IMG/VR virus record: IMGVR_UViG_2563366951_000003
Reading direction: 5' to 3' (one strand)
DNA length: 14,096 nucleotides
Source: a virus
Lineage: Duplodnaviria > Heunggongvirae > Uroviricota > Caudoviricetes
Made by a program: the position numbers and the translations under genes. Numbering within the stretch: the stretch's first letter is position 1; the number at the start of each line of letters is the position of its first letter. The notes below the pieces were generated by a model that saw nothing but the letters and a program-made list of their open reading frames with translations, ran no database searches and had not been told where the DNA came from. Of the stretch, positions 5,839 to 7,645 are shown in pieces.

Positions 5839-6009
5839 TTAAAGTTCATGTGCCATCTGGTCTTTTTCGGCACAAGCTTCACTGCAATATTTTCTCGGTT
5901 CGTCTTTTGATAAAATCCCGTGCATGAAGTGAAGCATTCTTTCAATAGCTTTGCTTTCTTCAACGTCTTTTTTGCAAAGGTGGTAAGCACATTTTATTTT
6001 CTTAGTCAT
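5839..6009 (-). CDS. ydaE: YdaE small Cys-rich protein (56 aa), putative zinc-binding
   Basis: Not in the ORF track (under 60 aa); translated by hand as [56 protein letters not shown]. Has Cx4C ... Cx3C. Its start ATG overlaps the kilR stop by 1 nt (TGATG). Confidence 0.75.
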   Translation of the reverse strand: MTKKIKCAYHLCKKDVEESKAIERMLHFMHGILSKDEPRKYCSEACAEKDQMAHEL

Positions 6010-6230
6010 CACCATGACTCCGCCTTTACAGGTAAACCATCACGACCGAGGAAGACTTTAATCATGCGGTCAGTAATGCATGTTTTTGTGGTCAGGTTAC
6101 GAATATATAGTTTTCGCTTTTTAATATTGTTTGCCGAGGCAATATATGTCCGGCCTTCATGAAGAACATAATCGCCAGGAGTCACACACTGACGTGGTAT
6201 TTCATCAGTTCCGAAGTGATGTGCAATCAT
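6009..6230 (-). CDS. kilR: KilR cell-division (FtsZ) inhibitor (73 aa)
   Basis: ATG at 6230 is preceded by GGAGA. Translation [15 protein letters not shown]... matches remembered KilR. First gene of the leftward early cluster. Confidence 0.85.
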
Positions 6231-6671
6231 AATTATCTCCATTTTTACAAATGAACTTTGTTGATGCGGTGCCTGGTGCCTCCAGGTGACTGCAACCAGT
6301 TAACAATTACAGTCGGCTTTCCCACCCAAACCAATAAGGACTAACATGACTTTTAACTGTGCCACGTGCGCTTAGCCGCATTCACCGCATCACAAAATTC
6401 ACTTTAAAAAGGGCGGACATCAGCCGAACTTCAAGAAAAAAACTGATGCCGCCAGGACTACACACAGCAATGTCGTTATTTACAACCGGAGGCGCACTCC
6501 CACCATTTAAATTTAACAGACAAGACCGACTCTTTATGGATATCGGAAATGCGCCTTCGTGTTGTGCCCGGTTTTATTTCACCACCTCCGGGCTTCGGTG
6601 GTCTCGGCTATACCCCTACAGCGAGAGCTTGTGTTAACATTTCAATACCCTTACAGTTGAGAGTTATTGAT

Positions 6672-7160
6672 ATGTTGGATGTATTTACTCCATTGTTGAA
6701 ACTTTTTGCTAACGAGCCACTCGAAAGACTTATGTATACGATTATCATTTTTGGTCTCACTCTCTGGCTGATACCGAAAGAGTTTACTGTCGCATTCAAT
6801 GCTTATACTGAAATACCTTGGCTCTTTCAGATTATCGTTTTTGCCTTTTCTTTCGTGGTCGCCATTTCCTTCTCAAGATTGCGAGCACATATTCAAAAGC
6901 ATTATTCATTACTACCAGAGCAACGAGTATTGCTTCGTTTATCTGAGAAAGAAATCGCTGTATTTAAAGATTTCCTTAAAACAGGAAATCTTATTATCAC
7001 TTCTCCTTGCCGTAACCCGGTTATGAAAAAATTAGAACGGAAGGGCATCATTCAACATCAGAGTGATAGCGCAAACTGTTCTTATTATCTCGTCACCGAA
7101 AAATACTCCCATTTTATGAAGTTATTCTGGAACAGCAGGAGTAGACGTTTTAATCGTTAG
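6672..7160 (+). CDS. sieB: SieB superinfection-exclusion membrane protein (162 aa)
   Basis: Translation from MLDVFTPLLKLFANEPLERLMYTIIIFGLTLWLI... has two hydrophobic helices and matches remembered SieB. The tracked 203-aa ORF has a 41-codon N-terminal extension without support. Confidence 0.85.
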   Translation: MLDVFTPLLKLFANEPLERLMYTIIIFGLTLWLIPKEFTVAFNAYTEIPWLFQIIVFAFSFVVAISFSRLRAHIQKHYSLLPEQRVLLRLSEKEIAVFKDFLKTGNLIITSPCRNPVMKKLERKGIIQHQSDSANCSYYLVTEKYSHFMKLFWNSRSRRFNR

Positions 7161-7321
7161 CTTACTGTGTGCTTCTCCAACCATCGGCGCGCACCAGTTT
7201 CGGTTTTAAATGTTTTGCTTTTGGTATACGTCATGGCAGTGAACGTTCCATCCTGGTTGGGGAACACGCCGCACACCAGGGATTCGTTGTTGCCGAGGTC
7301 GATTTTTTGCATTTTGCGAAT

Positions 7322-7456
7322 CTCACATCTTGTTGCTACGTATAGCGACTTCTGCCTGCCAGAGATCCCAGTCGTTGCTGCGTAAAGCCTGCACAGCCTG
7401 GTTGTAAGTGATACCGCAACAATCCATCAAATACTGAACTACTTCGTAATGCACCA
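7322..7456 (-). CDS. ydaG: YdaG small protein (44 aa), function unknown
   Basis: Not in the ORF track; translated by hand as MVHYEVVQYLMDCCGITYNQAVQALRSNDWDLWQAEVAIRSNKM. Matches remembered Rac YdaG. Confidence 0.65.
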
Positions 7457-7489
7457 TCTTATCTCTCCCCTTAACGCCGGGTGGCGGAA

Positions 7490-7645
7490 CTAACTGCTGC
7501 ACTGCAAAATTTGAATCCCGCCGTCATGTTCATACGCCTCGGGCTGGCTACTTAACCCCTTACCACTGCCTGGTAACTCGAAGTATTGCCCTGCGTTCTG
7601 TGGGGCGGGGTGGGTTGGTAGGTATATAATGTACTTTGTGTTCAT
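7490..7645 (-). CDS. ydaF: YdaF small protein (51 aa), function unknown
   Basis: Translation MNTKYIIYLPTHPAPQNAGQYFELPGSGKG... matches remembered YdaF. An adjacent in-frame ATG (7646-7648) is an alternative start. Confidence 0.65.
   Translation of the reverse strand: MNTKYIIYLPTHPAPQNAGQYFELPGSGKGLSSQPEAYEHDGGIQILQCSS

Follow-up and report, generated by a model that had tools for sequence, protein, structure and literature searches.

Genetic content of the kilR-sieB region

The window, the whole 14,096-nucleotide stretch of DNA that was analysed, represents the Rac cryptic prophage of Escherichia coli K-12 and is identical in sequence to NC_000913.3 (window position = NC_000913.3 position − 1,411,999). 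The genes intR, xisR, rcbA, ralR, recT, recE, racC, ydaE, and kilR are annotated in that order on the minus strand, followed by sieB on the plus strand (6672-7160) and then by ydaF, ydaG, and racR, again on the minus strand. Read leftward, the order of the early operon from the racR side is ydaG, ydaF, the gap region, kilR, ydaE, racC, recE, and recT.

Between kilR and sieB lies a non-coding gap of 429 bp (6243-6671). Three open reading frames (ORFs) fall within or reach into it, encoding 92 amino acids (6359-6637, plus strand), a 41-amino-acid upstream extension of sieB (from 6549, plus strand), and 63 amino acids (6608-6799, minus strand). None matched a Pfam or PHROG family, and the possibility of a decayed or missed gene was rejected on this basis. 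The original prediction that the gap holds no credible protein was therefore upheld, and its central feature is KilS, a small RNA that has already been annotated and published.

The ORF of kilR reaches 6242 on its 5′ side, where an ATG opens a frame of 77 amino acids; RefSeq takes the second ATG at 6230 as the start (73 amino acids). A GGAG sequence lies 6 nt upstream of the ATG at 6230, and the PHROG Kil profile aligned with the longer form from residue 1 (window 6228-6242, minus strand). Insertion sequences were identified in the same intergenic region of two other records, both at the equivalent of position ∼6637: IS1A in H1 (NZ_CM149871.1) and the IS5-like ISKpn26 in L003 (NZ_CP133811.1), where the element sits between the hairpin region and sieB. 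Three further loci (L217, L223, and L229) came from records titled Chryseobacterium sp., "Proteobacteria bacterium" MAG, and Candidatus Nanosynbacter MAG, respectively. Over the ∼250-nt stretches compared, the sequences match enterobacterial prophage DNA: L223 and L229 are identical to E. coli Rac, and L217 differs from the Scandinavium locus L215 at two positions; assembly or binning contamination is likely for all three.

The small RNA KilS

KilS (b4833) is a RefSeq ncRNA feature with a primary transcript of 98 nt, annotated at 1,418,405 to 1,418,502 on the minus strand. This corresponds to 6406-6503(−) of the window, the same coordinates and strand as the published RNA. Bar et al. (2021) predicted KilS from Hfq RIL-seq data, verified it by northern blotting, and assigned its 5′ end to a transcription start mapped at 1,418,502 (window 6503), its 3′ end to 1,418,405, and an RNase E site to 1,418,471 (window 6472), which is nt 32 of the RNA. 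The only published RIL-seq partner is yncL (Bar et al. 2021); the KilS-yncL duplex predicted here was weak, with 47 of 1,000 shuffles equally good, and no convincing second target of the KilS seed was found inside the window. DicF, RprA, and prophages are not mentioned in the text of Bar et al. (2021), nor is KilS mentioned in a 2025 review of phage small RNAs.

A candidate extended −10 element, TGtTAAATT (6510-6518, minus strand), precedes the start site (6503) by 7 nt. Its GTTAAATTT portion is nearly invariant across 45 homologues despite lying in the loop of a longer helix, and on these sequence features the element would serve as the KilS promoter. Both a small RNA and a leftward promoter had been anticipated in this gap from the sequence alone, and KilS, with its published start, accounts for the two together.

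KilS ends in an intrinsic terminator built on a DicF-type scaffold (6406-6453, minus strand), comprising a stem-loop at 6412-6453 (GGCGGCAUCAG...CUGAUGUCCGCC) and a CUUUUU tail. Beyond the invariant GGCGG/CCGCC, the stem covaries among homologues, as in the arm combinations GGCGGGUAUC/GAUACCCGCC and GGCGGUACCAG/CUGGUACCGCC. A consensus promoter/terminator scan did not detect this terminator, because its loop exceeds 8 nt. The predicted fold of KilS has a free energy of −34.9 kcal/mol (z = −3.3 versus shuffles). The terminator and the single-stranded seed were confirmed computationally, while the Hfq association, the northern verification, and the yncL partner are those of Bar et al. (2021).

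The structured leader of kilR

The interval between KilS and kilR (6243-6405, minus strand) forms a structured leader of ∼165 nt. A scan of Rfam at relaxed thresholds returned three minus-strand matches, to DicF, STnc100, and RprA, all below their gathering scores. The STnc100 match (RF02076) covered 6223-6409(−) with 35.5 bits, short of the gathering score of 47, and a related E. coli locus (L212) reached 45.1 bits. The leader is also about 85% identical to the dicF-dicB spacer of prophage Qin. In its fold, 6383-6403 pairs with 6250-6271 as a closing helix of 20 bp that encloses inner hairpins, CCUGG/CCAGG at 6272-6286 among them. This CCTGG-5 nt-CCAGG hairpin had been predicted correctly but placed at 6278-6292, 6 nt away from its true position, and the folding energy of 6270-6300 was no better than that of shuffled sequences (z = −0.33).

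Support for the fold came from an alignment of 87 distinct leaders, in which the same leader precedes dicB-type, kilR-type, or rha-type genes. The 44 pairs of the fold were 99.2% paired in these sequences, compared with ≤45% when partners were slid, and six pairs had changed on both sides. The many G·U pairs were compatible only with the kilR-sense (minus) strand. The helices of the STnc100 consensus were kept with compensatory changes, and the leader matches the model over all 206 positions, the closing helix and CACCNGGAGGCACCNGGCACC hairpin among them, as in the STnc100/PasD small RNAs of prophages. In other Enterobacterales, an STnc100 domain is followed by a KilS-type seed and terminator. 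Since the kilR coding sequence takes the place of the seed and terminator in Rac, the STnc100-like domain there serves as a 5′ leader and does not stand alone as a small RNA.

Other arrangements of the same parts were recovered. An STnc100-like domain lies upstream of a KilS-type seed and a GGCGGUACCAG terminator in L212, L235, L237, and L240 (E. coli/Shigella) and in L219, L231, and L233. A seed followed by an apparent ribosome-binding site and ORF start (AUGUUCU...), with no terminator, was seen in L213, L215 to L217, L222, L224, L225, L227, L238, and L239. The loci with the domain upstream of the seed suggest a general layout of structured domain, seed, and terminator, from which the KilS of Rac has lost the internal domain. 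On one viral contig (L046, 4732-4920, minus strand), C4 antisense RNA (Rfam, 76.7 bits) and isrK (59.6 bits) were identified just downstream of the same leader, which ties the module to the immI-like and IsrK-type regions of other prophages.

Antisense to the leader lies a nine-codon ORF, MTFNCATCA (6346-6375, plus strand; stop codon at 6373-6375), preceded by AGGA at 6337-6340. The mini-ORF is present in Rac as first described, but it is not a conserved leader peptide; its start codon falls in the hypervariable centre of the leader and occurs in 12 of the 87 distinct leaders, all of one central variant. On this distribution it was judged a chance occurrence.

Paired elements upstream of KilS

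On the minus strand, the sequence before KilS can form a long-range helix. Its 5′ arm, CAACACGAAGGCGCAUUU (6547-6564), pairs with the 5′ end of KilS, where the 3′ arm (6483-6499) makes up nt 5 to 21 of the RNA. The helix is 16 to 19 bp long, and the fold of 6483-6565 was more stable than shuffled sequences (z = −4.2). RNAalifold predicted it unaided, with 16 pairs, 99.9% paired, and three pairs changed on both sides. One variable purine/pyrimidine pair, the sole position left free by the search pattern, was A-U in 33 sequences, G-C in 15, G-U in three, and A-C in none. The loop carries a nearly invariant GUUAAAUUU, consistent with an extended −10 element at a distance of 7 nt from the KilS start.

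Further upstream, two interleaved helices, S1 and S2, occupy 6566-6602 of the minus strand in a pseudoknot topology. S1 pairs ACCACC (6602-6597) with GGUGGU (6586-6581), and S2 pairs GCCCGG (6593-6588) with CCGGGC (6571-6566). The order is ACCACC-GAA-GCCCGG-A-GGUGGU-GAAAUAAAA-CCGGGC, which leaves GAA, A, and GAAAUAAAA as loops. The original prediction had described the plus-strand arms GCCCGG (6566-6571), ACCACC (6581-6586), CCGGGC (6588-6593), and GGTGGT (6597-6602) as two overlapping, alternative stem-loops. The positions are correct, but the arms have no base in common. Because they interleave, S1 and S2 are alternatives solely where folding is nested, and a pseudoknot could accommodate both.

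Both helices were kept in 16 variants. S2, which adjoins the long-range helix, occurs as approximately seven different stems (GCCCGG, GCCUG, CCCUGA, UACCCUG, GCUCC, CCGGAU, and GCUGGU among the homologues), with the partner arm matching each time. The arms of S1 (CCAC/GTGG) are almost invariant, and this helix therefore rests mainly on conservation and on one change on both sides, in L236. On the minus strand, the 16 variants have the geometry of an H-type pseudoknot, with interleaved arms and loops long enough to span the grooves (S1, 5 to 6 bp; L1, 2 to 4 nt; S2, 4 to 6 bp; L2, 1 to 3 nt; L3, 6 to 10 nt and A rich); for the plus strand, L3 would come to no more than 2 to 4 nt. These sequence comparisons suggest that S1 and S2 may form simultaneously as a pseudoknot, an element that appears to be unreported in the literature searched. 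In some relatives, only a plain hairpin with an A-rich loop is found.

The energy of 6560-6608 was no better than that of shuffled sequences on either strand (z = −1.2, minus strand; z = +0.27, plus strand), so the significance of these hairpins rests solely on conservation and covariation in homologues. Since these homologues come from prophage copies that are closely related, and the retrieval patterns already dictated part of each helix, the number of independent covariation events is small (∼2 to 7 per helix). Within this set the hairpins did not vary freely, as they were both conserved and covarying. Wobble pairs decided the strand: in all supported helices they were compatible with the minus strand only, the margin for S1/S2 being 5 to 1, with variant L156 having a mismatch that, read on the plus strand, would form a wobble pair. 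The placement of the hairpins on the plus strand was abandoned accordingly. An intrinsic terminator at 6566-6602 was rejected for both strands, as there is no U-tract, and so was a frameshift-stimulating pseudoknot for ydaF: in sieB-less prophages the ydaF stop codon is ∼50 nt away from the element, whose upstream context varies.

The interleaved repeats could alternatively act as DNA, as regulator binding sites for the sieB promoter or for the KilS promoter, which lies ∼60 to 100 bp downstream on the minus strand. Their location, about −63 to −99 from the KilS start, would be typical of an activator or repressor site, and the S1 arms are indeed conserved in sequence and not covarying. S2, on the other hand, changes entirely in sequence while complementarity stays, behaviour that RNA would show but a protein site common to near-identical prophages would not; G·U wobble is tolerated and A·C almost never. 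Moreover, three loci (L222, L234, and L236) have the element abutting the seed, and no promoter-like block separates the two. A role as DNA sites is thus considered unlikely.

The same small probability is given to a cis-acting antitermination signal of the nut/put type, in which the hairpin or pseudoknot with its A-rich loop would let RNA polymerase coming from the early promoter pass the KilS/DicF terminator into kilR/dicB. The setting is suitable: in this early leftward operon, the element precedes an intrinsic terminator that must be read through if the genes downstream are to be expressed, and the expression of kilR has a known dependence on the state of transcription termination. The plain-hairpin variants also read CCCUGAAAAG, close to lambda boxB, GCCCUGAAAAAGGGC. 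Against this, no boxA-like sequence was found alongside the element, no N-like protein is known in Rac, and the element is unlike the two-stem put RNAs and matched no Rfam family. The known control point of kilR is, furthermore, the Rho-dependent terminator inside racR and not 6566-6602. An RNA element of the kilS/kilR module on the minus strand remains the preferred reading of S1 and S2.

The sieB cassette

SieB matched its Pfam family with an E value of 1.5e−31. Comparison with collinear Rac-like prophages delimits sieB as a cassette of 551 bp (6627-7177, plus strand), made up of 45 nt upstream, the ORF at 6672-7160, and 17 nt downstream. The flanks of the cassette are both present in strain MB06101 (L004), where the matches span window 5922-6626 and 7178-7600; only 42 bp stand where 6627-7177 would be, so that ydaF directly adjoins the hairpin region. 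Other contexts without sieB likewise keep the module. As the hairpins are retained in sieB-less prophages, they belong to the kilS/kilR module, and sieB, by these alignments, appears as an unrelated cassette inserted beside it on the opposite strand.

These comparisons bear on the earlier view that the gap holds a plus-strand 5′ leader of sieB, in which two alternative hairpins and a nine-codon leader peptide would form a transcription attenuator. A short ORF and hairpins do exist on the plus strand upstream of a gene, as in trp-type leader-peptide attenuators, and since the consensus scan found no sieB promoter within the 45 nt of cassette-specific upstream DNA, transcription of sieB could in principle start further upstream. 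The hairpins, however, lie outside the cassette and are unlinked to sieB, which as an inserted cassette leaves them no part in its attenuation; unlike a terminator/antiterminator pair, their arms do not overlap, no U run follows either of them on the plus strand, their G·U pairs fit the minus strand, and the plus-strand fold of 6560-6608 is no better than its shuffles; the mini-ORF lies 190 nt upstream of them, is unconserved, and is missing from 75 of the 87 leaders. An attenuator of sieB is therefore very improbable.

A part for 6603-6671 in sieB expression is possible. A hand-picked promoter candidate (TTGTGT at 6629-6634, a 17-bp spacer, and TACAGT at 6652-6657) would leave almost no leader. 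Among the phage records compared for the sieB upstream region, only Rac-like ones were found, so the promoter could not be defined in this way. The only plus-strand promoter-like site returned near sieB was at 6721-6748 (TCGAAA, a 16-bp spacer, and TATCAT), inside the sieB CDS; it may relate to an internal product such as Esc of P22. An in-frame ATG at 6549 would lengthen SieB by 41 amino acids to 203 and span the hairpins. Version.4 of the RefSeq SieB protein starts at 6672, and the extension lies mostly outside the cassette and has no family match.

Relationship to DicF and prophage Qin

The Rfam match to DicF (RF00039) covered 6411-6466(−) with 39.1 bits (E value, 5e−7), below the gathering score of 48. 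DicF of Qin scores 76.7 bits on the same model, and other seed variants also fell below the threshold. The two loci share their gene context: the Qin operon runs dicA, ydfA (DUF1391, like ydaF), ydfB, ydfC, dicF, and dicB, so that a DUF1391 gene lies upstream (ydfA or ydaF) and a division inhibitor downstream (dicB or kilR) in both prophages. KilS likewise has the layout of a DicF-type RNA, lying between early small ORFs and the gene for a division inhibitor and carrying a GGCGG...CCGCC hairpin with a U-tract.

When Rac was aligned with Qin, the two were nearly identical over a stretch that begins with the terminator's 3′ half (CCGCCCUUUUUAAAGUG), takes in the CACCUGGAGGCACCAGGCAC hairpin, and reaches the start codon of kilR in the one and of dicB in the other. 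Common to KilS and DicF are the terminator scaffold UGGCGG[U/C]AUCAGUUUU...CCGCCCUUUUU and the nearly identical downstream leader, as are the internal promoter-like block GUUAAAUUU and the arms of the upstream long-range helix. The 5′ parts of the two differ: the seed is UUUCUGGUGACGUU in DicF and AUUGCUGUGUGUAGUC in KilS, so that only the scaffold is shared between the two small RNAs. In the alignment, the target-pairing sequence of DicF (UUUCUGGUGACG) is absent from KilS, its seed having been replaced. KilS also lacks the ∼110-nt internal domain of the DicF precursor.

When viral contigs were scanned with the terminator/leader junction, 120 loci were returned. Upstream of the common scaffold these carried the DicF seed, the KilS seed, or one of at least two further seed types. 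Natural hybrids were among them: L013 combines the DicF seed with a KilS-like loop, and L105 combines the KilS seed with another terminator. Hybrids were also observed in L239 and other loci, including the Qin-type 110-nt precursor domain together with the KilS seed. The hybrid loci (L013, L105, and L239) suggest recombination between seed and scaffold modules. The seed-plus-scaffold motif was found in prophage regions of many Enterobacterales, and dicF-like sequences have reportedly been described in other prophages.

An RprA-like seed in KilS

The seed of KilS, AUUGCUGUGUGUAGUC (6456-6471, minus strand), is identical to the first 16 nt of RprA as matured by RNase E. Over a longer stretch, nt 23 to 48 of KilS and nt 50 to 75 of RprA share 24 of 26 nt with one gap, 16 of them contiguous, giving an alignment score of 40 compared with 14.1 ± 2.2 for shuffles (0 of 3,000 as good). 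Among the KilS variants, L117 has the longest contiguous identity with RprA, at 20 nt. The Rfam match to RprA (RF00034) was at 6432-6543(−) with 28.1 bits and an E value of 0.41, well short of the gathering score of 70. In both RNAs the common stretch lies just upstream of the terminator. The 5′ hairpin domain and the terminator of RprA, by contrast, have no similarity to KilS, the rpoS-pairing stretch is interrupted in KilS (ACGACAUU versus ACGAAUU), and RprA is encoded by the core genome whereas KilS is encoded by a prophage. On sequence, KilS looks like a hybrid of DicF and RprA, a resemblance apparently unreported in the literature searched.

RNase E matures RprA at GA|AUU (Chao et al. 2017), and the site mapped in KilS falls at ACGAC|AUUG. 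With cleavage directly before AUUGCUG in both RNAs, processed KilS and processed RprA would each begin with AUUGCUGUGUGUAGUC. Nucleotides 60 to 75 of RprA pair with site Ib of csgD, and the same stretch is part of the region that pairs with ydaM, both interactions having been proven by compensatory mutations (Mika et al. 2012). Because its 5′ seed is that of mature RprA, KilS is expected to base-pair with targets of RprA, csgD site Ib among them. A 13-nt exact complement of the KilS seed was identified in the csgD 5′ untranslated region (−98 to −86). The predicted KilS-csgD duplex had an energy of −27.2 kcal/mol, compared with −24.9 for RprA at the same site, and five of 2,000 shuffled seeds were as good; these values are from a seed-only analysis, as folding of whole-length duplexes gave unrealistically long duplexes. 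Processed KilS is accordingly predicted, by this duplex modelling, to pair with csgD site Ib. The KilS seed sits immediately upstream of a cell-division inhibitor gene.

A proposed module of the Rac leftward early operon

The gap is very probably the non-coding centre of the Rac leftward early operon, homologous to the ydfC-dicF-dicB segment of Qin, and we extend the same degree of confidence to the explanation as a whole, with KilS, the leader, processing, and the seed. On the minus strand, from 5′ to 3′, the proposed layout begins with the interleaved helices (6566-6602) and continues through the long-range helix and KilS (6503 to 6406) to the kilR leader. The loop of the long-range helix would hold the KilS promoter, and its 3′ arm would be the 5′ end of KilS itself. 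KilS would then present a single-stranded seed followed by the DicF-type intrinsic terminator, and the leader of ∼165 nt would end ∼10 nt before the ribosome-binding site of kilR.

Others have shown that a start site of its own gives rise to KilS, that the RNA ends at the terminator, and that it associates with Hfq, and also that termination holds down the expression of kilR, for which a Rho-dependent terminator inside racR has been characterised. The KilS terminator would form a second barrier before kilR, limiting transcription into this toxic division inhibitor, and kilR would consequently be expressed by read-through. RNase E cleavage at ACGAC|AUUG may release an RNA of ∼66 nt with the RprA-type seed at its 5′ end. 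The two helices of ∼20 bp that flank KilS could, by analogy with DicF, be determinants of processing or stability for transcripts that start further upstream. Maturation of DicF is reported to involve termination, RNase III, and RNase E (Faubladier et al. 1990).

A broader proposal is put forward more tentatively, at somewhat less than even confidence. KilS may belong to a family of prophage small RNAs that is modular, combining the DicF-type scaffold and flanking processing helices with interchangeable seeds of at least four types. The KilS seed would be a copy of the mature RprA seed, and Rac would supply a second, prophage-controlled regulator of two RprA targets, csgD (at site Ib), a regulator of curli and biofilm, and ydaM/dgcM, which encodes a diguanylate cyclase. 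The pseudoknot-type element and the two ∼20-bp helices would direct the cutting of the small RNA out of long early transcripts through RNase III and RNase E.

The analysis replaces a plausible but wrong reading of the region as a sieB attenuator with one in which every hairpin is assigned to a conserved RNA module of the minus strand. Should the relation between KilS, DicF, and RprA hold, it would provide a clear example in which seeds were swapped on a common prophage small-RNA scaffold and, if true, one in which a core-genome small RNA had its seed copied by a prophage. It also predicts that KilS should repress csgD through site Ib. Such repression, if real, would tie the division-inhibition module of a cryptic prophage to the control of biofilm formation and would help to explain the wide effects that transcription of the Rac early region has on the cell.
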